In this document: one piece after another, positions 13,405 through 28,167 of the stretch
Layout: each line of letters opens with the position of its first letter
How positions within the stretch are numbered: position 1 is the stretch's first letter
Sequence record: PZ452579.1
Source: a phage
Direction: 5' to 3' (one strand)
Length of the DNA: 64,000 bases
Notes under the pieces: generated by a model
The model's database searches: none
The model's input: only the letters and a program-made list of their open reading frames with translations
Told to the model about the DNA's origin: nothing
Program-made: the position numbers and the translations under genes

Positions 13405-14569
13405 CGAAATCTTCCATTTCGTCAAGGTCGTTTTCTATATCTGCTGCAGACGGAGCATCAGAAGTTTTAACCGGAACTTTAGTTGTTGCTTTGCAATTAA
13501 TAAGGTCGTTAACAGCGTCATCAACTTCTTTAATAGAAGAGATAGCACCTAGTTTATATTTAGTTTCAATTGCATCTCGGAAAGGTTTGTGTTTAAACAA
13601 AGGTCCCCAGAATTCTACACAATCAGTAGCTTTAGCACGCCATGATTTTTCTTCACGAATCATTTCACCTGTTTCTTCGTCAAGGAATTCGCGAGCATAC
13701 CAACCGGCTTTAGGCTTAACTACAAAACCAATTTCAGTTGCCATTTCTAACAAGCCACTGAATGGGTCAATACCGCCATCAAAATTAACCGTGATCGGGA
13801 AAGTAGATTTCTCTTTAACTGTGCGAGATTTTTCTGCTTTCAACGTGAAGTCATAACCGGTCAATTCTGTACCTTCTTTAACCTGACGTTTAGAGATAAA
13901 AAATACCGTGTTGGCAGAATAAAGAATACCTGTACCACCGCCCATAATCTCTTTAGGATACAATCCGCCGATTTCCATTGCTGTATGGTTAATTGCAACA
14001 CACGGAATATCTTTAATAGTCAAATACGGGGTCACAATACGGAAAAGAGATTTAAGTGCCTTAGCACGAGACATATCACCTACGACTTTCTCGTTCAATG
14101 CATCTTCGGTTTCTTTCTTAGATGCAGTATTACCAATCGAGTCAATAAAGATAATAACTTTATCACCGCGTTCAATAGCGTCAAGCTGATTAGTCATATC
14201 AACTTTAAGTTGTTCGACAGATTGAATCGGAGTATGAACTACACGGTCTAAATCAACACCCATTGAACGAAAATAAGATTCTGAAGCACCGAATTCTGAG
14301 TCATAAAACAAACAGATTGCATCTTTATATTTCTTCATATACGCTGCAACCATAGTTAGTCCAAACAACGTTTTAAAGTGTTTAGAAGGAGCAGCAAAAA
14401 TAGTTAAGCCTGATTGCAACCCTGCATTCAGAGCACCACCTAGTGCAATATTCAACATCGGAATACGAGTAGGGACTTCATCACGATTATTAAACAGCTT
14501 AGACTTAGTCAAGTCTGCAGTCATTTTAGAAGTAGAAGCTTTAATCAGACGAGATTTTAAATCAGACAT
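13397..14569 (-). CDS. uvsX: UvsX recombinase (RecA-like)
   Basis: 390 aa; MSDLKSRLIKASTSKMTA... and RecA fold motifs; matches T4 UvsX. Confidence 0.95.
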   Translation of the reverse strand: MSDLKSRLIKASTSKMTADLTKSKLFNNRDEVPTRIPMLNIALGGALNAGLQSGLTIFAAPSKHFKTLFGLTMVAAYMKKYKDAICLFYDSEFGASESYFRSMGVDLDRVVHTPIQSVEQLKVDMTNQLDAIERGDKVIIFIDSIGNTASKKETEDALNEKVVGDMSRAKALKSLFRIVTPYLTIKDIPCVAINHTAMEIGGLYPKEIMGGGTGILYSANTVFFISKRQVKEGTELTGYDFTLKAEKSRTVKEKSTFPITVNFDGGIDPFSGLLEMATEIGFVVKPKAGWYAREFLDEETGEMIREEKSWRAKATDCVEFWGPLFKHKPFRDAIETKYKLGAISSIKEVDDAVNDLINCKATTKVPVKTSDAPSAADIENDLDEMEDFDE

Positions 14570-14667
14570 TGTATTTTTCCATAGGCATCATTATATTTTA
14601 CTCATGTTTAAAAGATAAGATGATTATATACTAAGGGTTATACAGCATTTAAAACTTTAAATGGCTC

Positions 14668-15216
14668 TTAACGAGCCCATTTGATGATTTCTGTAATCAA
14701 ATCATTACGTTCGCTTGCATTAAATCCTATAACTTTGTTAGCACCATCATGATTAAGTAATTGATACGTTTGGATTTTGTTATGAATTGCAAACTCTTCA
14801 AAATGTGAAATGACTGTATTAAAACCGAATGAAGACAAAGTAATAAGGTCGTCTTCAAAACTTTCAGTCATTTCGTTACGTGTTAAAATAATTGTGAACA
14901 CATCATGGTTTTGGCAAAGACGAATATAATCCTGTTCATAAACGTCAAGAACCGAGTCCGCATCTTGTCGAATACGTCCATAAACCCAGTTACTAATATA
15001 TCCACGGTCTAACAGATAAATCTTAGTAGGGTCTAAATAATTCAACATCGTTTCGAAACAGCCAACTTCGTTTCGAGACTTAACATCGAAACGTCCATCA
15101 ACTGTTCGTTTAGGGAAATCAATCTTTACATATCTTTCACTAATTTCCATTATGTCATTAATGAAAGTTGTTTTACCAGCATTATCCGGGCCATCTACTA
15201 AAATAATTTTAGCCAT
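14668..15216 (-). CDS. P-loop kinase (dNK/dNMP-kinase or small sugar-kinase-like)
   Basis: 182 aa; Walker A GPDNAGKTT and LLDRGY (DR motif); occupies part of T4 beta-glucosyltransferase slot. Confidence 0.6.
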   Translation of the reverse strand: MAKIILVDGPDNAGKTTFINDIMEISERYVKIDFPKRTVDGRFDVKSRNEVGCFETMLNYLDPTKIYLLDRGYISNWVYGRIRQDADSVLDVYEQDYIRLCQNHDVFTIILTRNEMTESFEDDLITLSSFGFNTVISHFEEFAIHNKIQTYQLLNHDGANKVIGFNASERNDLITEIIKWAR

Positions 15217-15217
15217 T

Positions 15218-16117
15218 TTATTCCTCGATTACGACATCTTCGTATTTAGGTATATTATACGGCGAAGAAATTAAAGCATTAAAGTAGATGAACTCACCAA
15301 GACCTGGATGGAATACTTCTTCAGGATTTTCGAAATATTGAATCTTCGGACGTCCTTTAAGAATTTGATAGTACTCAGTTTTAGTCGGTTTAAAAATTCG
15401 AATCAGCGCTTCTTCAGGATACTTATTTCTGTCGAAGCTATTATTTGGATCGGTTATATAAAGCGGTTGACCTAATTGAATTGCACATTCAACCACTTGT
15501 TCAAAACGATAGCATGGGTCACTAATTCGAAATGGATGAAAAATACCATCTAGATGAATAGGAGCCAAATCACCTACAAGACGCTGCATGATGGAAGGAC
15601 GTATAACTTTCTGGGTTATGATAATCTTATTACCATCGGCACCAGCGTTAACCAGCACTTCCTTTTGACGTTTATTCAACACAGTTGTTTGGATTGAACG
15701 ATTAACCGACAACATGTCGGTTTTTAAGAATTCGTCAATATAAAAACGTGGTTTATTAGGGTCTGCGGTGATATTGAAATTGAATTCTACATCAAAAGCG
15801 CCGTCATATCCAGTGATATCTGTGATTAGAAAATCACAATCATAATAAGCAATTAATGAATCAACCACAAATTCATTTTCAGACCAGAAATATTTACGAG
15901 TGTTATACGCGTTATCTTTATACCATAATGGAACAAACTTAAATTCTGGGAAAAGACGTTCACATTCTTTAATATCAGATGCATTACGTGGATATGTAAT
16001 CACATCACCTGGATTAGCACGGTGCAAATGAAGTTGGAAGTTGCCATCCTTAAGGATAGCATACTGTCCAGTTTCATAAGACCGCATACTCAAGATAGGT
16101 ACGCGGAAAATAGCCAT
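15218..16117 (-). CDS. Hypothetical protein at bgt locus (candidate hmC sugar transferase)
   Basis: 299-aa ORF, tightly coupled to flanking genes; no recognisable motif; function inferred only from position. Confidence 0.5.
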   Translation of the reverse strand: MAIFRVPILSMRSYETGQYAILKDGNFQLHLHRANPGDVITYPRNASDIKECERLFPEFKFVPLWYKDNAYNTRKYFWSENEFVVDSLIAYYDCDFLITDITGYDGAFDVEFNFNITADPNKPRFYIDEFLKTDMLSVNRSIQTTVLNKRQKEVLVNAGADGNKIIITQKVIRPSIMQRLVGDLAPIHLDGIFHPFRISDPCYRFEQVVECAIQLGQPLYITDPNNSFDRNKYPEEALIRIFKPTKTEYYQILKGRPKIQYFENPEEVFHPGLGEFIYFNALISSPYNIPKYEDVVIEE

Positions 16118-16833
16118 TAGTCAAGGAATCCTTTAACATAATCAAAATCACGTTCAAACACATGGGCACTTACCATGGTATGAGTATAATCACCAACTTC
16201 TACACCACATTCGTTAGCGATATAATGAAGTAATTTTCCTTGGAGATAAAAATCCAACTGCATAACAACAGCACAGTTCTGAGAACGCATATGACAGTGG
16301 GTATAAAGCTTACCATCGCGAATATAATAAGTCACTGAGTCAGTACATGGATATTCAAGTGTTTCGTCCGAATCAAGCAAAGCCTGATCAGAACTTTCTA
16401 GAATTTGGAACACAACTCTTCGAGAGTTAGGCTTCTCTTTAAGTTCTTTTAGAAGAGCTGGTAATTGGGCTGCAATGCGAGGACCATAGAAAGTGTTGAA
16501 GTTCGCAGGCAAAGCATCTGATTTTGGTTTAGAAATAAATTTAGCGACATTAGGATATGCCTTAAACGCTTCTTCTGCATCAGTACCACCAGAAATCATA
16601 AATTTCCAGAAGTCTTCGGCATATTCATAAGAGATGCGGTTAATACGTGGGTCGGTCATTTTGAATGATGATGGAGTGTCAACAACTACTGTCATAGACC
16701 CAATTTCATTACAACGTCCAATACGAGAATCAGTTACGAATTCCGGGTTTTCTAAAATTTCACGATTGACTGCTTTAAATGCGGCTTGAAAATCTGCGGC
16801 TTTGATATATTTCATTGTGTTATGTTTTCCCAT
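16117..16833 (-). CDS. 42: Thymidylate-synthase-fold pyrimidine hydroxymethylase (gene 42-like dCMP hydroxymethylase)
   Basis: 238 aa; catalytic Cys in YPCTDS, RSQN...QLDFY segment alignable to T4 gp42 RSND...FRNDYA with Asp retained at the cytosine-specificity position; divergent from T4. Confidence 0.75.
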   Translation of the reverse strand: MGKHNTMKYIKAADFQAAFKAVNREILENPEFVTDSRIGRCNEIGSMTVVVDTPSSFKMTDPRINRISYEYAEDFWKFMISGGTDAEEAFKAYPNVAKFISKPKSDALPANFNTFYGPRIAAQLPALLKELKEKPNSRRVVFQILESSDQALLDSDETLEYPCTDSVTYYIRDGKLYTHCHMRSQNCAVVMQLDFYLQGKLLHYIANECGVEVGDYTHTMVSAHVFERDFDYVKGFLD

Positions 16834-16874
16834 GTTTACCTCAATACAGTTATTATATACTCAATTCATAAAGC

Positions 16875-17114
16875 TTATTTGAATTTCTTGGCAATGTTGA
16901 TATAACGTAAAGCTTCAGCATCGATACTTCCAAGAACACTATGAAGAAATGCATCAGCGTAATATTCTAGTTGAACAGGTTCTTTAATCACTTTAGCCGC
17001 TTTGGTTTCAAACAGGCCCATAAGGGCCTTTTTAAGAATTTGTTCGTTAGTGTTCAGTTTCATAGTCAAAATCTCTTCATTAAGTTGGTGGTTAAAAGTT
17101 TTTCTAGAAATCAT
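16875..17114 (-). CDS. Hypothetical soluble protein (imm position, not Imm-like)
   Basis: 79 aa, no TM segment. Confidence 0.45.
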   Translation of the reverse strand: MISRKTFNHQLNEEILTMKLNTNEQILKKALMGLFETKAAKVIKEPVQLEYYADAFLHSVLGSIDAEALRYINIAKKFK

Positions 17115-18271
17115 TCTGGGTACCTCAAAGCGTCGTCAGAGTTAGTTATATCAATAATAGATATAGAATTTTCTGATAACCCGTTTTTAGATAACTGACG
17201 TTTATAATATCTTTCACAATATGTACACGTCGTCCCGCAGATTTCATTAGCACAATCGAAATCTGGATGTCTGAACCACCTTTTTTCTAAAAAGCCATCT
17301 AACAAAGAGGTTTCAATATTTACTGTATGTGAAAACTCGGTCTCATTTTCAAGAGTGAAAATAGTCTCTAAAGGCTTCCACAGTTCTAACAAATTACCTT
17401 CAAACTTTTCAGAAGCGTATGCTTCAAGAACTTTCAAAATGTAGTCTGTGCTACCTGTACGTCCTGAAACTTTGAATTGAGTGATACCGATATCATTATA
17501 AAGTTTCAAATCTTGAGGACGAACAAAACGAGTTCTCAACCAGTTAAATGGGTCTGTATCACGAGCTTTAATACAGTGCTGCATTGGATATCCGTTTAAG
17601 GATTTAGCATCATCAGCTGTAACATCAGTACTATGGAAAATATAGCAAGAGTCACGATAGCTACAATGTGTTGTATACCCTTTACCAGCATTAGAACAGA
17701 ACTCATTTACAAGAACTTCAAATATTATATTGTTCTTATTGCAAAACTCTGCTGCACGCTTCAGGAAAGAAACTGAACGGTTCTTATGAATTCCGCAACA
17801 GACCTTTTTGATATTATATTGGTCATGCAAGTATTTGATTTGAGTTACAGCATCGACATGTAGAATTGTTGAAACTTCAATCTCAATGTCTTTATTGACT
17901 TCACGAACAATTTCCATAACAACAGGGTTAGCGATAGTAATACGCCATACGCCTATTGACCAAAGATACTGAACATAATCCTGAATAGCTTTCTTCTTCC
18001 ACTCAACTAGTTCTCTTTTTGAACCAGGATTTATCGTGTTGAGCGTATAGTTAAAGCAAATACCTAATTCGTTACAACGTTTAACGTAATCTTCTAACAT
18101 CTTTTTGTCAACGTCAGGAAGCCTAAAATCAGGTCTGGCTGCTACAAAAGCCATTTCTCTTGTAGAGCCGTATACTTCGTTTATCAAGCTATTAGGATAA
18201 GTTTTATTGAGCTCTACGATTTTATCAAGAAGAGCTAAATCAAAATTCGTTCCGATTTTAAAAGTATTCAT
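17111..18271 (-). CDS. Hypothetical Cys-rich protein within sugar cassette (candidate transferase)
   Basis: About 386 aa from MNTFKIG...; C-terminal CANEICGTTCTYC cluster; no confident family. Confidence 0.5.
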   Translation of the reverse strand: MNTFKIGTNFDLALLDKIVELNKTYPNSLINEVYGSTREMAFVAARPDFRLPDVDKKMLEDYVKRCNELGICFNYTLNTINPGSKRELVEWKKKAIQDYVQYLWSIGVWRITIANPVVMEIVREVNKDIEIEVSTILHVDAVTQIKYLHDQYNIKKVCCGIHKNRSVSFLKRAAEFCNKNNIIFEVLVNEFCSNAGKGYTTHCSYRDSCYIFHSTDVTADDAKSLNGYPMQHCIKARDTDPFNWLRTRFVRPQDLKLYNDIGITQFKVSGRTGSTDYILKVLEAYASEKFEGNLLELWKPLETIFTLENETEFSHTVNIETSLLDGFLEKRWFRHPDFDCANEICGTTCTYCERYYKRQLSKNGLSENSISIIDITNSDDALRYPE

Positions 18272-18327
18272 TTTTTTGCATCTCACGTTAATTGATGCGA
18301 TGGTTTTTGCAGGTCTTACTTAAATTA

Positions 18328-18714
18328 TTATAGATTCGGTTTATATGATTTAAATGTTTCGAATTCGCCTTTATTCATAAGAGCTTTGAATTCGTCAGGA
18401 CGCATAGCTTTGTCGTCGATAATCCAATCATATACTGGTTTATGTGTTAGCAAATTATGGTACTTTAAGCCAATGTTTGCCAAGTTCTGGATCAGACTTG
18501 GGAGAATGTCAATTGCTATACGACCAGGACCTACTGACTTCATACCGCGAGCAGTGTAAAGCGTTATGGTATGCCCTGCATCATACAGGGCATTAATGGC
18601 AGACACCATTTCGACGTCTGGTTTGAAGTTCACGTAATCACGATTGTTATTCCACTCTGTTATACAATCATCGACATCAAAACAAAGATTAAGCATGTTT
18701 TCTACACGGTGCAT
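18328..18714 (-). CDS. HAD-superfamily phosphatase (small, C0-type)
   Basis: FDVDDCIT (motif I), YTARG (motif II), KP...IIDDK (motifs III/IV); start ATG shares a base with upstream stop (TAATG). Confidence 0.7.
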   Translation of the reverse strand: MHRVENMLNLCFDVDDCITEWNNNRDYVNFKPDVEMVSAINALYDAGHTITLYTARGMKSVGPGRIAIDILPSLIQNLANIGLKYHNLLTHKPVYDWIIDDKAMRPDEFKALMNKGEFETFKSYKPNL

Positions 18715-20399
18715 TAGATTCGTTCCCATTGATGAGTGATATCGCCACCGATTGGACGATAGGAAACACCAGTTTCTTTATCAGTTAGTACCCATTTACC
18801 AGGATTTTTTGTAATCAGAGTAGCCGTTACAGGTTCTGCTACGTCATAACTAATAGAGCCGTCTTGAAGTACACGGCCCATATTACGTAATTGCTTAGTC
18901 AGAAGTTCCATACCTTTATAATATGCGGCTACCGCTTTAAGTGGATTATTCTTGAAATAACCACCTAATGCAATCCAGATAATTGCCACTGCCAAATGAT
19001 GATACTCGTTAAACGAACTCATCTTTCCATATTTGTAAACTAATGGATTGATGTTAATAGTCACATTACAAGTTGTTTCATCAATAGTAAACTGTCCCCA
19101 GGTCGGATTAGCGTTGAATTCATCATAACCTGAAACAGCATAAAGCACTTTAGCTTCATCGTACAATTTTGGCCCGTAAATCTTGGTTTCGCCAAAATAT
19201 CCACGAGGGTCGATAAACTTGACTTCGCCGTTATCAGTAATCATAGTATTACTGAAGTTCGGGTCACCATGAATAACAGAGTACTGTCCCTGAGAACGGT
19301 TATGATAACGAATAAGGTGTTCTAAAGCTTGTTTCAGCATTGGCTTCAGACGTCCAATCTTAGTGTAGTTCACATGTGTGATTTTACCAAATGAATCAAT
19401 CAATGGTTGAATGCTTTCACAACGATCAATAACTTTCGTATAGAATTCTTTAGTGAAATCACGACGAACAGTTTCAGGACTTACAAAATAAGTGTCTGTG
19501 CTGAATTTCAGTGCATCTAAAATTGCATCAACAATTTGTGGACGAGCAAGACTTGATTTGGATTTAATATATTCAAATGCCGGCTTACCTTTAATGCGTT
19601 CCATTTCAAAGTTATTTTCATTAACAGAAACTAACTGAGGAACTGAATCTGATTTCACTTTAAGATACCATGAAATCTCATCTTTCTGAAGAGCTCGGCC
19701 CTGTTCGGTTAATGCGAATTTAGTTACAGTTTCTTCACCAATTTCAACTGCATTAAAACTACGATTAAGTTCACGAACTTCATGAGCTTTTTCAAGTTTA
19801 GGCATATCACCTAAATCAATTAGATTCATAAGCTCTGATTTATTGAATGCACTGCCGTAAAGGAATTCTACGAAATCACGTCCTTTGCAGTATTCGTGAA
19901 TTTCCTCATCAGTAGAACCCATGTAGAATTCCCAGTCTTTGAACTGATAAATTCCTACAACATTACCACCTGTTGAACCTACGTTAGTGATATTTTCACC
20001 GTCGAAATTATATCGACATTCGTCACCCTTAACATAGATTGCGTTAACATTCCAAGACCATGAACCAAAATCAGGAATAATATCACACCAGTTAACAATT
20101 ACATTATGGCCGTCTAAATCTTTGTGTAATTTAGCAAGAGCATAAGCAGAACCATACGCTTCATCAACTGTACGAATAGTCACATTGAACCCTTCTTGCT
20201 CACAATAAGCTCGAACAGTTTCAGCAAATTTTGAATGAACTACTACAATAATTTCATCTGCGCCAAGGTCAGAATAAATTGTATACAAATTGCTCAGAAT
20301 AGTGTCTTGTTTATAGTTCACAAGAACTTTTGGAATATGGTGAGTAATTGGATATAAACGAGTTGCCAGTCCAGCACCAAGAATAACAGCTTTTTTCAT
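18714..20399 (-). CDS. Bifunctional sugar-1-phosphate nucleotidyltransferase / sugar kinase
   Basis: 561 aa; N-terminal ILGAGLATRL (GxGxR NTase motif), C-terminal IHGDPNFSNTMITDNGEVKFIDPRGYFG (APH/choline-kinase-like catalytic loop). Confidence 0.75.
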   Translation of the reverse strand: MKKAVILGAGLATRLYPITHHIPKVLVNYKQDTILSNLYTIYSDLGADEIIVVVHSKFAETVRAYCEQEGFNVTIRTVDEAYGSAYALAKLHKDLDGHNVIVNWCDIIPDFGSWSWNVNAIYVKGDECRYNFDGENITNVGSTGGNVVGIYQFKDWEFYMGSTDEEIHEYCKGRDFVEFLYGSAFNKSELMNLIDLGDMPKLEKAHEVRELNRSFNAVEIGEETVTKFALTEQGRALQKDEISWYLKVKSDSVPQLVSVNENNFEMERIKGKPAFEYIKSKSSLARPQIVDAILDALKFSTDTYFVSPETVRRDFTKEFYTKVIDRCESIQPLIDSFGKITHVNYTKIGRLKPMLKQALEHLIRYHNRSQGQYSVIHGDPNFSNTMITDNGEVKFIDPRGYFGETKIYGPKLYDEAKVLYAVSGYDEFNANPTWGQFTIDETTCNVTININPLVYKYGKMSSFNEYHHLAVAIIWIALGGYFKNNPLKAVAAYYKGMELLTKQLRNMGRVLQDGSISYDVAEPVTATLITKNPGKWVLTDKETGVSYRPIGGDITHQWERI

Positions 20400-20426
20400 G
20401 TTGAAGTCCTCATTGGTAAGTAGGAG

Positions 20427-20453
20427 TATTGTACACTATTCTAGTTAAAGCAT
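20427..20453 (-). promoter_or_regulatory. Candidate T4 middle promoter (MotA box + -10) upstream of the NTase/kinase gene
   Basis: Minus strand aATGCTTTAa then 11 nt then TACAAT, about 20 nt before RBS GAGGA and ATG at 20399. Confidence 0.4.
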
Positions 20454-20584
20454 TCATACTTTGCTTGTAGTCCAATCATAATCCATCCAATTACAAGTGT
20501 TGGAATCATTACTGGAGCCGTTAAGCTCCAGTAGATAGTCATGACAAGCATCAATAGTAAAAGTCCTATTGTTATTGCTTTCAT
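20441..20584 (-). CDS. 47-aa hydrophobic peptide (single TM)
   Basis: Manual translation MKAITIGLLLLMLVMTIYWSLTAPVMIPTLVIGWIMIGLQAKYECFN; ATG overlaps SIS gene stop (ATGA); below track size cut-off. Confidence 0.35.
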   Translation of the reverse strand: MKAITIGLLLLMLVMTIYWSLTAPVMIPTLVIGWIMIGLQAKYECFN

Positions 20585-21216
20585 TGTTCGCCTCGTAACA
20601 TGGCACCTAGTGCACCGCCTGGATGGAACTTAAGGAAATCATTAGAGGTAAATCCGCGTTCAGACGAAAGGTTGATAGCGAACGTATCGATAAGCGCTAA
20701 CAACAATGTAGTAGACATTGTCGGAGCTAAAGAGTTCTCGTCAACTTCTACCGCGATACCGGTACAGAACGTATAATCAAAAAGAGCTTCGTATTCTTGT
20801 GGAATGTCAGGGTTACAATGTAACAGAATCTGTTTAACCTGAGGACGAATCATACGAAGATGTTTAGCAACACCTATCATTTCTTCAGTCTTACCAGAAC
20901 GACTGATGTGAATCAACACATCATTAGGTGCAATAAATCCTGCGTCACCATGAGAATAATGCCCAGTGTTCAAATACATGCTAGGAATACCTAGTGAAGC
21001 AAAAGTCTCGGAAGCTTTAGTTGCGATATTAGCATTCTTACCAACACCTGTAATAATTACACGACTTTCATAATTACTCAGTCCAGGGCGACGAAGAGTT
21101 TCAAGAATAGCATTATATCGGGCAGGGTTTTGACTAATTACTTTAGCCATAGTGGCAAGAGATGAAGCTTGTTTTACGATTGCGTCAATAGCGATAGTGA
21201 TTGGTGTAGTTTTCAT
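20581..21216 (-). CDS. SIS-domain phosphosugar isomerase (KdsD/GutQ-like arabinose-5-phosphate isomerase, SIS domain only)
   Basis: 211 aa; ITGVGKNANIATK ... HGDAG ... SRSGKTEE pattern matching KdsD SIS domain rather than GmhA. Confidence 0.75.
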   Translation of the reverse strand: MKTTPITIAIDAIVKQASSLATMAKVISQNPARYNAILETLRRPGLSNYESRVIITGVGKNANIATKASETFASLGIPSMYLNTGHYSHGDAGFIAPNDVLIHISRSGKTEEMIGVAKHLRMIRPQVKQILLHCNPDIPQEYEALFDYTFCTGIAVEVDENSLAPTMSTTLLLALIDTFAINLSSERGFTSNDFLKFHPGGALGAMLRGEQ

Positions 21217-21256
21217 ATTTCTCTCATTTAATTAGTTGGCCGTCCTTGGCATTATA

Positions 21257-23968
21257 TCAAAAATCAAACATATCGAACAGAGATGCTTTCTTCTCGTAAT
21301 CGAGTTTCGCTGCTGATGTGAATCCTTCAAGCGGTTTAATAAATGTCTTCTCAAGGAGAACAGTGTAGTCCATCCAATGAAGTACATCATCTTTGATTAA
21401 ATCAGTGATTTCCGTACCAGAAGGCCATGCGATACATTTATCACCGAATGGGTTTCCTTCACGTAAAGGCAGAACATATACTTTTTCACCTTCTACAACT
21501 TGTGGAGCATCAATATTACCTTTGATAGCCCGGTTATATGTCAGAATTCCACGAATATGGAACGGGCATTTAGGTCCTGGATATCCACCTACATCATATT
21601 TAGCAATGTTATTCGCAGAAGATACCGACGCGATGCTAATATAATTCAATTGACGGAATTCTTTTTCAAACTCTTTAAAATATTCTTGTAATGATTCTTC
21701 ACCTTCTTGAAGCATACGACGAATACATTCTTTAAGAGCTTTCTGTACTGCTTTAGGAGTCGAAGATTTCTGAGTCTCTAGACCCATGATTTTGAGTTTA
21801 GGCTCAGCGTATCTGGTTCCTTCCATATCCCACACGTTTAATGCATAACGTTTCTTACCAGTCCAGAATCCACCAATACCTTTAGAACCGAGCGGAGGAC
21901 CAGCGATAGCTTCTCGGTCCATGAACATTAAGTGTTGTTTATTGTTCATGTATTCACACATTTCACGGAAACCTTTATCAATAGCTGGTTCCATACGTTC
22001 ACGTGCAAACTTATCTAAGAAGTCTACCCAATGGTTGGTATCACGGAATTTAGATTCACCAACCTTATCGATAATTTTATCAGCAGATACGTAAATAGAG
22101 TCTGTATCACCATAAAGAACGAAAGCTTCACCTTCTGTACCACAAACTTCATTCAGATATTCATTAACTTTACGTTCAATCCACTGTAAAGCCATTTGAC
22201 CAAATGTTGTGATTGCAGTAGCATTACGCAAATCATAATAACGGAACCAAACGTTGCCAAGTGCACCATAAAGTGAGTTGATAAGCAATTTACGGTTAAT
22301 CTGTGCAGTCATACCTGCAACTTCAGTACGTTGAGCTCTAAACAACATTTCATTAAGAGATTTAGCAGACAACTTTTTAATCTTTTCTTTAATCTCATCA
22401 CTGAAGTCGAAACGATAATCAACATCTAATGGTTCGTCAACAGAAAGATTAGGATTATGTAAGGCCTCTTTAATTATTTCACCATTACGTTGAGCCGCAA
22501 GCATATAACCTTTATGTTCTTTACGTTGATTAAAGACTTTAGTGATTTCAGTTGGAACAACACCGTCACGGTCTTTATAATACATCATGCCGTTAGGAGA
22601 ACAACTGTACACATCAGAAGGACGTTCAGCAACAGCGTTAATATAATCATGTAATGGAGCTACTTTAAACGTTCCTGCTATTGTTTCTGGGCTAATATTC
22701 ACTTGGCGAATGATGCTTGGATACAGAGATGTTAGGTCGAAGCTCATCACATATTTGTATCGATTTGGAATAGGTTCCTTAACAAAAGCACCCGGGTAAG
22801 GTTGAACTGGATGCGAACGACCTTGTGGAATCACCTTGTTTTGTTCTTTAAGGCTATTAAAAATAATAGCGTCCCACGTTTTAATTGGGCTAAACACAGA
22901 TTGAATCTGTATCTTAGCATAATAACCCATGTCCAAGCTCAAGTTAATGAACTGACGCTTAGCATCAATTTGCAATACACGATACACGTCGATAATGTTA
23001 TAAGAAATATATCGTTGGTGATTGCTTTCACGAAGCTTAGAAATAGGGCCATCATATTTCAGTTTACCAACGTTCAATTCAAATTCTGAAATGTAATCCA
23101 GAGAATACGACGGTTGATTGGTAAAAGAGAATTTTTTGTAAAGGTCGATGTAATCAAGAACAGAGATACCGAACAATGTAATGATTTCTCGTGAACCATA
23201 CATGTTTTCAATAACTTTAACACGAGTCTTGCGATGTGGTGACAACCGTTTTGCTGTGGATTCGCCAAAAATATTCTTGATTCGGTTATACACATATGGA
23301 ATATCAAATGACTCAACGTTCCATCCAGTCAAAATGACAGGAGTTTTCTGTTGCCAGAAGTTGAGATATTCCATCAACAATTCTTTTTCGTTATCGAACG
23401 GCATATAAATGATTTTATCGATAATTTCAGATGGAACTTCATCACCGCCTTGTTCTTGAAGCTTAGCAGCGATTTCAATAGACCATTCTTCTACATTACC
23501 ATATGGAGAATTCAATAGATCAAATACGTAGAACCTGTCGTCAATTGAGTCATAATGGGTGATAGCATCAATCGGATGTTTTGCTTGTGACGGCTCAGGG
23601 AACCCGTCCGGAGATGTTACTTCGATGTCGAAGTTAGCCACACGAATTTTTGTATGGTCGTATTTGATTTCATAGTTATAAGTGTCAGACAAATACGCCA
23701 ATTTGAAATCGTCCATGCCAAGTGCTTCAAGTCCGATATCTTCCATGCGTTTAATCCATTGTGAGGCATCACGCATATTAGCGAACAACTTACGAGTACA
23801 CGGCTTACCGTAGATATCGAAATATTTCGTAGCCTGACTTTCTGGACAATGAGCAAACAGTGATGGTTTATATTCTACTTCACGAGTACGTTCACGGCCG
23901 TTAGAATCGATGTAACGTTCAAAAATTGAATCACCGATCTGTTCAACCGTTAAGTAAAATTCTTTCAT
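21257..23968 (-). CDS. 43: DNA polymerase gp43 (family B)
   Basis: 903 aa; exonuclease and polymerase motifs including YGDTDS; T4 gp43 size and position. Confidence 0.95.
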   Translation of the reverse strand: MKEFYLTVEQIGDSIFERYIDSNGRERTREVEYKPSLFAHCPESQATKYFDIYGKPCTRKLFANMRDASQWIKRMEDIGLEALGMDDFKLAYLSDTYNYEIKYDHTKIRVANFDIEVTSPDGFPEPSQAKHPIDAITHYDSIDDRFYVFDLLNSPYGNVEEWSIEIAAKLQEQGGDEVPSEIIDKIIYMPFDNEKELLMEYLNFWQQKTPVILTGWNVESFDIPYVYNRIKNIFGESTAKRLSPHRKTRVKVIENMYGSREIITLFGISVLDYIDLYKKFSFTNQPSYSLDYISEFELNVGKLKYDGPISKLRESNHQRYISYNIIDVYRVLQIDAKRQFINLSLDMGYYAKIQIQSVFSPIKTWDAIIFNSLKEQNKVIPQGRSHPVQPYPGAFVKEPIPNRYKYVMSFDLTSLYPSIIRQVNISPETIAGTFKVAPLHDYINAVAERPSDVYSCSPNGMMYYKDRDGVVPTEITKVFNQRKEHKGYMLAAQRNGEIIKEALHNPNLSVDEPLDVDYRFDFSDEIKEKIKKLSAKSLNEMLFRAQRTEVAGMTAQINRKLLINSLYGALGNVWFRYYDLRNATAITTFGQMALQWIERKVNEYLNEVCGTEGEAFVLYGDTDSIYVSADKIIDKVGESKFRDTNHWVDFLDKFARERMEPAIDKGFREMCEYMNNKQHLMFMDREAIAGPPLGSKGIGGFWTGKKRYALNVWDMEGTRYAEPKLKIMGLETQKSSTPKAVQKALKECIRRMLQEGEESLQEYFKEFEKEFRQLNYISIASVSSANNIAKYDVGGYPGPKCPFHIRGILTYNRAIKGNIDAPQVVEGEKVYVLPLREGNPFGDKCIAWPSGTEITDLIKDDVLHWMDYTVLLEKTFIKPLEGFTSAAKLDYEKKASLFDMFDF

Positions 23969-27450: not shown

Positions 27451-28167
27451 ATGAATTATAACTCAATATACGAAAAGCTTATCACCAATGCTAAATCAAG
27501 AAGTTTAGATGGTTATACAGAACGTCATCACATTATACCACAATGTTTAGGTGGAAGTGATGATGCTTTAAACTTAGTAGACTTAACACCGGAAGAACAT
27601 TATTTGGCACATCAACTGTTGGTAAAAATCCATCCAGATAATGCCTCTTTAATATATGCCGCTCGTATGATGACCATATCATCTCCTAAAGCAGATAGAA
27701 GCAAAAACAAATTATTTGGATGGCTTCGACGTAAGAATCAAGAAGTTCAAAAGAACAAAGAATTCACTGCTGAAACCCGTAAGAAAATGTCTGAGTCTGC
27801 AAAAAATAAACCAAAGATTACATGTCCACACTGCGGTTTAACCGGCACTGAAGGAAACATGAGACGTTGGCATTTTGATAACTGTAAACAAGGCCCTACG
27901 CCTAAAATAGTAAAACTTGATCAAGAAACAAAAGATAAAATAATTAAAACCATGGCCACGAAAATTTGGAAAGAAGATTCTTGCCCGTTTTGTGGCTTAA
28001 CTACTAAGTTATCGGCGTTAAAGCCACATATAAAATTCTGTAAATCAAATCCTAACAGAAAGAAAAAAGAGGACAAGAAAATTAAATGTCCTCATTGCGA
28101 TAAAATAGGGATCCCTGCTAATATGCATCGTTGGCATTTTGATAACTGTAAACATAAGCCTCATTAA
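27451..28167 (+). mobile_element. Free-standing HNH homing endonuclease with three C-terminal zinc-binding repeats
   Basis: 238 aa; ERHHIIPQCLGGSDDALNLVDLTPEEHYLAHQ (HNH); three CxxC...RWHFDNCK-type modules; only sizeable plus-strand gene in this block. Confidence 0.8.

Follow-up and report, generated by a model that had tools for sequence, protein, structure and literature searches.

Genes of a probable UDP-D-arabinofuranose pathway in the DNA-hypermodification module of an RB69-like coliphage

Described pathways and the phage module

The synthesis of UDP-arabinose by two phage proteins, ORF055c and ORF53_52c, was proposed by Thomas 2018, and the pathway was characterised in 2025-2026, including a crystal structure of exactly the phosphatase which is encoded by the genome studied here. 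It provides the sugar for arabinosyl-5-hydroxycytosine, the DNA hypermodification of a large group of coliphages that are candidates for therapeutic use. The modified base is a shield against restriction enzymes and shapes the sensitivity of these phages to type IV and glycosylase defences. The closest described system is the Afh pathway of phage HY126 with the kinase/pyrophosphorylase AfhE and the phosphatase AfhF. According to Lee et al. 2026, who relay the results of He et al. 2026, the route leads from D-ribulose-5-phosphate (Ru5P) via D-arabinose-5-phosphate (A5P), arabinose-1,5-bisphosphate and arabinose-1-phosphate to UDP-arabinofuranose. In RB69 the counterparts of the three proteins discussed below, a HAD phosphatase, a kinase/nucleotidyltransferase fusion and a SIS-domain isomerase, are gp51, gp52:53 and gp55 (Thomas 2018; Lee 2026).

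The same logic is known from the ADP-heptose pathway (GmhA/HldE/GmhB), in which a SIS isomerase is followed by a kinase that phosphorylates a sugar phosphate at its anomeric carbon, a HAD phosphatase acting on the bisphosphate and a nucleotidyltransferase. Kinase and nucleotidyltransferase are fused in HldE as well as in the phage protein, and both GmhB and the phage HAD protein cut the distal phosphate of a bisphosphate. However, the substrate is a pentose instead of a heptose, the SIS protein is of the KdsD type and not of the GmhA type, the phage kinase has an APH/choline-kinase fold whereas that of HldE belongs to PfkB, and between GmhB and the phage HAD protein no sequence similarity exists. 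The two pathways are therefore analogous and not orthologous.

The window, which is the whole stretch of 64,000 nucleotides that was analysed, originates from a Mosigvirus, an RB69-like coliphage of the T-even kind. It is about 98% identical to the BASEL phage Bas46, also across the whole module, and the counterpart region of Bas46 already bears UDP-arabinose annotations. With HY126 the source phage shares the genus, the gene order, an identical HAD protein and a near-identical homolog of ThyA; apart from three substitutions of the latter relative to the HY126 structure there is essentially no difference. The source phage is thus another isolate of the HY126/RB69 group. Positions 18328-21216 lie inside the DNA-hypermodification module, which is flanked by the genes for the DNA polymerase gp43 and UvsX. 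The open reading frames for the SIS protein, the fusion and the HAD protein, with all features given in the initial annotation, are located on the minus strand. Their homology at E-values between 1e-25 and 1e-88 and their conservation across hundreds of phage genomes far exceed what would be expected by chance.

We consider it very likely that these three proteins constitute the phage-encoded UDP-D-arabinofuranose pathway of the Mosigvirus (RB69-like) phages. What is added here to the published work is the confirmation of the genes as those enzymes, a corrected order of the steps, a misnaming in RefSeq and PHROG which we flag as widespread, and a gene of the U32 family to which we draw attention.

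The SIS-domain isomerase

The first gene of the trio (20581..21216, minus strand) is equivalent to RB69 ORF055c/gp55 and encodes a protein of 211 aa. Pfam assigns to it a SIS domain alone (residues 51-181, E 4e-10) and no CBS domain. Its C-terminus (HPGGALGAML) coincides in the alignment with the point at which the CBS pair of E. coli KdsD starts. The motifs GVGKN, HGDAG, SRSGKTEE and HPGG are found at residues 57, 89, 105 and 198, and the GmhA-type motif CGNGGS does not occur within the 211 aa. The top NCBIfam matches are kpsF (KpsF/GutQ) with 111 bits and KdsD with 106 bits, both short of the full-length cut-offs, as the match extends over no more than the SIS half of either profile. The protein falls into PHROG 5670, named 'arabinose 5-phosphate isomerase' (E 1.5e-116). 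BLASTP aligns it with E. coli KdsD at 36% identity (E 2e-32); all four catalytic residues are kept, K60/H89/E112/H198 being aligned with K59/H88/E111/H193 of KdsD. E. coli GmhA gave no BLASTP match at E<=10. The initial annotation had read the loops as KdsD/GutQ-type rather than GmhA-type and had stated that tandem CBS domains are lacking; both statements agree with these results.

Matches in the PDB are 3etn, 5uqi, 2xhz and 3fxa, with E-values from 7e-25 to 6e-13. The best of them, 3etn, is a chain of 220 aa described as an arabinose-5-phosphate isomerase of B. fragilis. Like the phage protein, 3etn, 5uqi and 3fxa comprise about 200-220 aa without a CBS pair, and they share with it the SIS fold, the Lys/His/Glu/His set and the C-terminal motif HPGGALG. 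E. coli KdsD and GutQ have the fold, the catalytic set and the HPGGALG motif in common with the phage protein, while the two C-terminal CBS domains are present only in KdsD and GutQ. Judged by its sequence, the phage protein is a KdsD/GutQ-type arabinose-5-phosphate isomerase without CBS domains, and since its best PDB match is a single-domain enzyme it fits the CBS-less subgroup. A literature search for CBS-less isomerases of this kind found only work on canonical KdsD. The novelty which the initial annotation had implied for the gene pair is not supported, as CBS-less enzymes are known from PDB 3etn and the UDP-arabinose module was proposed in 2018.

The KdsD/GutQ-type relatives serve Kdo synthesis, whereas the phage enzyme would serve a nucleotide-sugar pathway. 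It could be partly redundant with host enzymes, since E. coli provides KdsD and GutQ of its own. As a lesser possibility, the phage protein may be no redundant copy of KdsD but a deregulated enzyme that draws Ru5P and A5P off the Kdo synthesis of the host.

A small hydrophobic open reading frame of 47 aa, MKAITIGLLLLMLVMTIYWSLTAPVMIPTLVIGWIMIGLQAKYECFN, follows at 20441..20584 on the minus strand, its start overlapping the stop codon of the isomerase gene as ATGA. It belongs to PHROG 3610 (E 7e-27), which is labelled as of unknown function, and is annotated in Bas46 as the hypothetical bas46_0147.

The fusion protein, the HAD phosphatase and the order of the steps

The fusion of 561 aa (18714..20399, minus strand) corresponds to RB69 ORF53_52c (gp52:53) and is the counterpart of HY126 AfhE. 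Pfam recognises NTP_transferase at residues 3-99 and gives weak matches to kinase families at residues 308-409. The protein contains the motifs GAGLATR at residue 8, HGDPNFSN (HxDxxxxN) at 377 and IDPRG at 396. LicC (1jyk) is the best sequence match in the PDB, and PHROG 4098 covers the full length. These features predict an N-terminal sugar-1-phosphate nucleotidyltransferase and a C-terminal kinase resembling APH and choline kinases. From synteny, the identical AfhF and the statement of Lee et al. 2026 that RB69 gp52:53 is an analog of HY126 AfhE, we infer that the fusion is the AfhE ortholog. For AfhE itself a D-arabinose-5-phosphate kinase activity is given by Lee et al. 2026 in their summary of He et al. 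2026. TH1_060, the homolog of the fusion in phage Thanatos, is essential for phage propagation.

The open reading frame of the HAD protein (18328-18729) offers two starts, a first ATG at 18729 resulting in 133 aa and a second one at 18714 resulting in 128 aa. The latter overlaps the TAA stop codon of the upstream gene as TAATG, and the crystallised construct begins with it. The gene at 18328..18714 (minus strand; RB69 gp51) accordingly encodes AfhF of 128 aa, which is 100% identical over 128 residues to PDB 9iqw, entitled 'phage HY126 encoded D-arabinose 1,5-diphosphate phosphatase AfhF'. The HAD motifs are, numbered for 133 aa, D18-V-D20 (I), T59 in YTAR (II), K97 in HKP (III) and D105-D106 in IDDK (IV); the corresponding residues of the 128-aa form (D13, D15, T54, K92, D100 and D101) are invariant in 24 homologs. 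An AlphaFold model (pLDDT 80.7) consists of a compact alpha/beta core without a cap insertion, and its Foldseek neighbours are HAD phosphatases. AfhF is thus a capless (C0) phosphatase of the HAD superfamily with four motifs, which is what the initial annotation had proposed for a protein of about 128 aa.

The nearest relative of known fold is V. cholerae 1xpj (31% identity, Foldseek E 2e-7), which together with TIGR01689 ('EcbF-BcbF capsule biosynthesis phosphatase') represents the same subfamily of small capless HAD proteins. Its bacterial members are located in polysaccharide and nucleotide-sugar loci and lack the linkage to SIS or kinase genes which the phage protein has. Next to 1xpj, the GmhB heptose-1,7-bisphosphate phosphatases are the nearest characterised fold neighbours. 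The similarity to GmhB (3l8h, E 3e-3, TM 0.47) and to KdsC (1k1e, E 9e-3) is a remote one of fold only, and neither E. coli KdsC nor E. coli GmhB gave a significant BLASTP match. In a cyanophage the HAD homolog adjoins genes for an HldE-like kinase and an adenylyltransferase.

In RefSeq and in PHROG the HAD gene is labelled 'phosphoheptose isomerase'. This name, together with GmhB as a fold neighbour, could suggest a heptose-type pathway in which GmhA would be represented by the SIS protein and GmhB by the HAD protein. We give this hardly any credence, because the SIS protein has neither similarity to GmhA nor its CGNGGS loop, and the HAD protein has the fold of a phosphatase and not of an isomerase and no GmhB-like sequence. 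The label looks like a propagated annotation error. A pathway of the Kdo or capsule type, with KpsF/KdsD as isomerase and a KdsC-like Kdo-8-P phosphatase, might be considered for similar reasons: the best family matches of the SIS protein are KpsF/GutQ/KdsD, the HAD protein matches the NCBIfam model 'capsule biosynthesis phosphatase' (under cut-off), and KdsC is among its remote fold neighbours. It is nevertheless extremely improbable. Homologs of KdsA and KdsC are absent from the 64-kb window, E. coli KdsA giving no tblastn match at E<=1 anywhere in it, and the HAD protein is without significant sequence similarity to KdsC. The nucleotidyltransferase is of the sugar-1-phosphate type and not a KdsB-type CTP_transf_3 protein, and the pentose in the virion DNA of these phages, which is of the arabose type, is identified in the literature as arabinose. 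That no KdsA-like aldolase is present, and that this speaks against a Kdo pathway, had already been stated in the initial annotation. Both the heptose-type and the Kdo-type reading were dropped after the direct sequence tests.

Salvage pathways that combine an anomeric sugar kinase with a nucleotidyltransferase, e.g. AmgK/MurU, act on free sugars, and the N-terminal domain of the fusion has MurU among its fold neighbours. Both would suit an order in which the HAD protein first frees D-arabinose from A5P, the kinase then makes the C1-phosphate and the nucleotidyltransferase activates it. This order of the initial annotation also appears in Table 1 of Lee et al. 2026, which keeps the older labels, with the phosphatase acting on Ara-5-P ('dephosphorylates Araf5p to Ara') and the kinase on free arabinose ('phosphorylates Ara to Araf1p'). 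The table conflicts, however, with the text of the same paper, which in relaying He et al. 2026 describes AfhE as an A5P kinase and lets AfhF turn Araf1,5P into Araf1P in a Mg2+-dependent reaction that takes the 5-phosphate off Ara-1,5-P2. The deposition of the identical protein 9iqw as a D-arabinose 1,5-diphosphate phosphatase, the bisphosphate phosphatases of the GmhB type as fold neighbours and the genes beside the cyanophage homolog argue against free arabinose as well, and we regard that order as improbable. The 9iqw deposition and the activities given for AfhE and AfhF imply that the kinase acts first and that the free pentose is not an intermediate; the bisphosphate order is thus a reported one, resting on the summary of Lee et al. 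and the title of 9iqw. From the earlier proposal that an intermediate of the pentose phosphate pathway is converted into a free pentose which feeds the fusion, the origin and the activated pentose are retained in agreement with the literature. The free pentose is not, as AfhF is a bisphosphate phosphatase that follows the kinase.

In the UDP-D-arabinofuranose pathway the CBS-less isomerase would accordingly form A5P from Ru5P of the host, as homology and the conserved catalytic residues suggest. The C-terminal kinase domain of the fusion would phosphorylate C1 of A5P to give D-arabinose-1,5-bisphosphate, AfhF would take off the 5-phosphate to leave arabinose-1-phosphate, and the N-terminal domain of the fusion would join the latter with UTP to UDP-arabinofuranose. 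For these three steps the activities are those which the summary by Lee et al. 2026 reports for HY126 AfhE and for the identical, crystallised HY126 phosphatase. Neighbouring glycosyltransferases would finally arabinosylate the 5-hydroxycytosine of the phage DNA, for which the adjacent ThyA homolog would make 5-hydroxy-dCMP, and the arabinosylated DNA would be protected against restriction enzymes.

The order of the genes for SIS protein, fusion, HAD protein, ThyA-like protein, glycosyltransferase and kinase is kept in Acinetobacter phage Konradin (46-70% identity) and in one misbinned phage contig. Among 34 loci on genome contigs which encode relatives of the HAD protein, one is a misbinned phage; in the remaining 33 the surrounding 8 kb contain no homolog of the SIS protein or the kinase (E<=1e-3), so that no evidence was found for a bacterial SIS/kinase/HAD operon. 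Fusions of nucleotidyltransferase, kinase and SIS domains in Butyrivibrio were reported by Thomas 2018.

The remaining genes of the module and the U32-family protein

Three further genes of the module lie on the minus strand at the far side of the trio. The thymidylate-synthase homolog (16117..16833), equivalent to RB69 gp48, is a 5-hydroxy-dCMP synthase according to the literature; all 238 residues are matched to PDB 9iqc/9ir2 with three substitutions visible in the alignment. A candidate DNA arabinosyltransferase 1 (15218..16117) is equivalent to RB69 gp46:47 (PHROG 3891, E 6e-156; Lee et al. Table 1) and 47% identical to the syntenic gene of Konradin. The gene at 14668..15216 is equivalent to RB69 gp45 and encodes a thymidylate-kinase-like nucleotide kinase, as indicated by the Bas46 annotation, a weak dTMP-kinase match and Lee et al. 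Table 1. The second arabinosyltransferase, RB69 ORF003c, has no homolog in the 64-kb window and is located elsewhere in the genome.

Of all genes in the module the one explained least is that for a U32-family protein at 17111..18286 on the minus strand, which is RB69 gp50 (Pfam Peptidase_U32, E 7.5e-11). The protein is found in 222 phage records, all with at least 80% identity. Its gene is absent from Acinetobacter phage Konradin, and its sequence has no match in the PDB. Identity to E. coli UbiU, UbiV, RlhA and TrhP amounts to 13-23%, with a common FK(I/V)xGR motif and an unreliable register of the cysteines. It is conceivable, though rather doubtful, that the U32 protein is an O2-independent pyrimidine C5 hydroxylase and thus functionally akin to RlhA, TrhP and UbiU/UbiV. 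If so, it would allow phages of facultative anaerobes to make 5-hydroxycytosine when the flavin-/O2-dependent ThyA-type synthase fails, and this 5-hydroxycytosine would be the acceptor for the arabinose which the three enzymes of the trio supply.

Scans of positions 14500-21400 gave 21 promoter-like sites (24.8 expected) and four terminator-like sites (3.4 expected).

A published pathway for UDP-arabinofuranose

Arabinose was found in RB69 DNA by Thomas et al. (2018), who proposed that UDP-arabinose is the product of the SIS protein ORF055c and the 561-aa kinase/nucleotidyltransferase fusion ORF53_52c, both encoded in a module flanked by the polymerase and uvsX genes. The modified base was later shown to be arabinosylated 5-hydroxycytosine, and 5-hydroxy-dCMP is made by a ThyA homolog (Lee et al. 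2026). Phage Thanatos of Shewanella requires its fusion homolog, TH1_060, to propagate. The finding is already known: the proposal of the module dates from 2018, and characterisation of its chemistry and enzymes followed in 2025-2026.

We are highly confident that this published pathway is the best explanation for the SIS, fusion and HAD genes. The route described in the text of Lee et al. (2026), which the proteins of the window would follow, begins with the isomerisation of ribulose-5-phosphate (Ru5P) to arabinose-5-phosphate (Araf5P) by the SIS enzyme. The kinase domain of the fusion then forms Araf-1,5-P2, from which the HAD enzyme cleaves the 5-phosphate, and the N-terminal domain of the fusion yields UDP-Araf. 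For the last three steps these authors relay the biochemistry of AfhE and AfhF, the fusion counterpart and HAD phosphatase of phage HY126, from He et al. (2026). These steps are shown elsewhere for identical or orthologous proteins; the isomerase step we infer from homology.

The GmhA/HldE/GmhB ADP-heptose pathway works alike, but the components are not homologous one by one. Direct sequence tests identified no KdsA, KdsC, GmhA or GmhB homolog in the window. A heptose-type reading was rejected for want of the two Gmh proteins and a Kdo-type reading for want of the two Kds proteins; the argument of the initial annotation, that the absence of a KdsA-like aldolase speaks against a Kdo pathway, stands.

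The SIS isomerase

The 211-aa SIS ORF (20581-21216, minus strand) had been described as having KdsD/GutQ-type instead of GmhA-type loops and as lacking tandem CBS domains, and both points are borne out. It contains the motifs GVGKN, HGDAG, SRSGKTEE and HPGG, and a motif scan of the protein found no GmhA-type CGNGGS. SIS is its only Pfam domain. The top NCBIfam ranks are KpsF/GutQ, KdsD and GutQ, with alignments limited to the SIS half of these profiles. E. coli KdsD matches with 36% identity (E 2e-32), E. coli GmhA does not match, and KdsD residues K59/H88/E111/H193 align with K60/H89/E112/H198. The protein ends at HPGGALGAML, exactly where the CBS pair of KdsD starts. Arabinose-5-phosphate isomerases without CBS domains have a precedent in the 220-aa chain of 3etn.

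Between the SIS and fusion genes lies a strongly hydrophobic 47-aa ORF (20441-20584, minus strand), apparently with two membrane-spanning segments, which shares the sequence ATGA, its start overlapping the stop, with the SIS gene and is conserved as PHROG 3610.

The HAD phosphatase and the order of steps

Translated from its first ATG, the HAD gene (18328-18729, minus strand) gives 133 aa; the second ATG, which overlaps the stop of the upstream gene as TAATG, gives 128 aa. All four HAD motifs are present and invariant across 24 homologs, and the AlphaFold model (pLDDT 80.7) is a compact, capless core, in agreement with the initial description of about 128 aa, four motifs and no cap. A crystal structure exists of exactly this phosphatase. 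In a PDB sequence search 9iqw (released 2025-07-16), entitled 'phage HY126 encoded D-arabinose 1,5-diphosphate phosphatase AfhF', is 100% identical over residues 5-133, and it is also first in Foldseek. The second Foldseek neighbour is 1xpj, an uncharacterised V. cholerae protein (31% identity), followed at much greater distance by GmhB heptose-1,7-bisphosphate phosphatases and, beyond these, by T4 PNKP phosphatase, KdsC and HisB-N.

The initial annotation had the phosphatase act first, releasing a free pentose for the kinase. The same older order, via free arabinose, is kept in Table 1 of Lee et al. (2026), inconsistent with their own text. It is contradicted by the 1,5-diphosphate phosphatase function deposited for the identical protein, by the AfhE/AfhF biochemistry as relayed in that paper, and by the GmhB-like fold neighbourhood.

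The HAD gene is widely misnamed 'phosphoheptose isomerase' (RefSeq phage records, PHROG 1238), elsewhere 'polynucleotide kinase' or 'capsule biosynthesis protein', and the fusion is often labelled 'bifunctional protein GlmU'. These names look like propagated annotation errors.

Genomic setting and distribution

Between 11.6 and 27 kb every ORF lies on the minus strand, in a T4-type replication module with a gp41-like helicase, UvsX, a 903-aa family-B DNA polymerase, RegA, clamp loader and clamp. A 238-aa ORF (27451-28167, plus strand), opposite to all its neighbours, has an HNH-like motif ERHHIIPQCLGG...EEHYLAH and repeated zinc-finger-like units CPHCG...RWHFDNCK; it probably encodes a homing endonuclease that has inserted into the replication module.

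By megablast, region 14600-21300 matched 237 phage records, 155 of them at 95-99% identity. The close matches are all RB69-like, and the top records are classed as Mosigvirus. BASEL phage Bas46 (ChristianSchoenbein, 98.4%) ranks first; its record annotates the SIS counterpart as 'putative phosphosugar isomerase involved in UDP-arabinose biosynthesis', the fusion as 'putative enzyme involved in UDP-arabinose biosynthesis' and the HAD protein as 'putative phosphatase'. Along its full length the ThyA homolog (16117-16833) aligns with PDB 9iqc/9ir2, differing by three substitutions. Judged by these proteins the phage is a very close relative of HY126, yet not identical to it, since AfhF is identical and the ThyA homolog is not. 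Identical proteins are already public on 35 (SIS), 65 (fusion) and 343 (HAD) contigs.

The U32-family gene (RB69 gp50; 17111-18286, minus strand), between the HAD and 5-hydroxy-dCMP synthase genes, is labelled only 'sugar or heterocycle reductase' by Lee et al. (2026). In 222 records of phages with Escherichia, Klebsiella, Proteus, Serratia or Shewanella hosts its product keeps at least 82% identity, and the searched collection contains no match below 80%; the gene is absent from Acinetobacter phage Konradin, although the rest of the module is present. The U32 proteins characterised in E. coli, namely RlhA, TrhP and UbiU/UbiV, are all known from hydroxylations that need no O2, two of them at pyrimidine C5, and by analogy this product may provide an anaerobic route to 5-hydroxycytosine. 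A 79-aa ORF (16875-17114, minus strand; hypothetical bas46_0143 in Bas46) separates the U32 gene from the ThyA homolog; its stop overlaps the end region of the U32 ORF.

The HAD family is present in 375 phage records. Konradin has the order SIS, fusion, HAD, ThyA-like, GT, kinase, GT, GT (46-70% protein identity). In cyanophage S-SSM7 (locus L003, 4941-7336) the homolog SSSM7_130 (38% identity) lies two genes downstream of genes annotated as heptose 7-phosphate kinase/adenylyltransferase (HldE-like) and carbohydrate kinase. Such surroundings suit a bisphosphate phosphatase, and the locus may represent a different phage nucleotide-sugar pathway with the same small phosphatase. 2OG-Fe(II) oxygenases and carbamoyltransferases are encoded nearby.

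True bacterial relatives (27-39% identity) have no linked SIS or kinase genes. In Runella zeae DSM 19591 (locus L021, 7260-8309) the relative is the C-terminal part of a fusion with a KdsB/NeuA-type cytidylyltransferase (CTP_transf_3), in a capsule export locus (Wza-like, CpsB, Wzc-like); a PfkB kinase gene lies two genes downstream. In a Rhodoplanes MAG it adjoins a GT4 glycosyltransferase. From these settings the small-HAD family would generally serve nucleotide-sugar and polysaccharide pathways. A 167-kb contig filed as 'bacterium isolate ... cleanbin' (L005, CAVJPU010000002.1) contains the module in full, from SIS through fusion and HAD to ThyA-like, at 51-69% identity; as its length is that of a T4-like phage genome, it probably belongs to a phage that was misbinned as bacterial.
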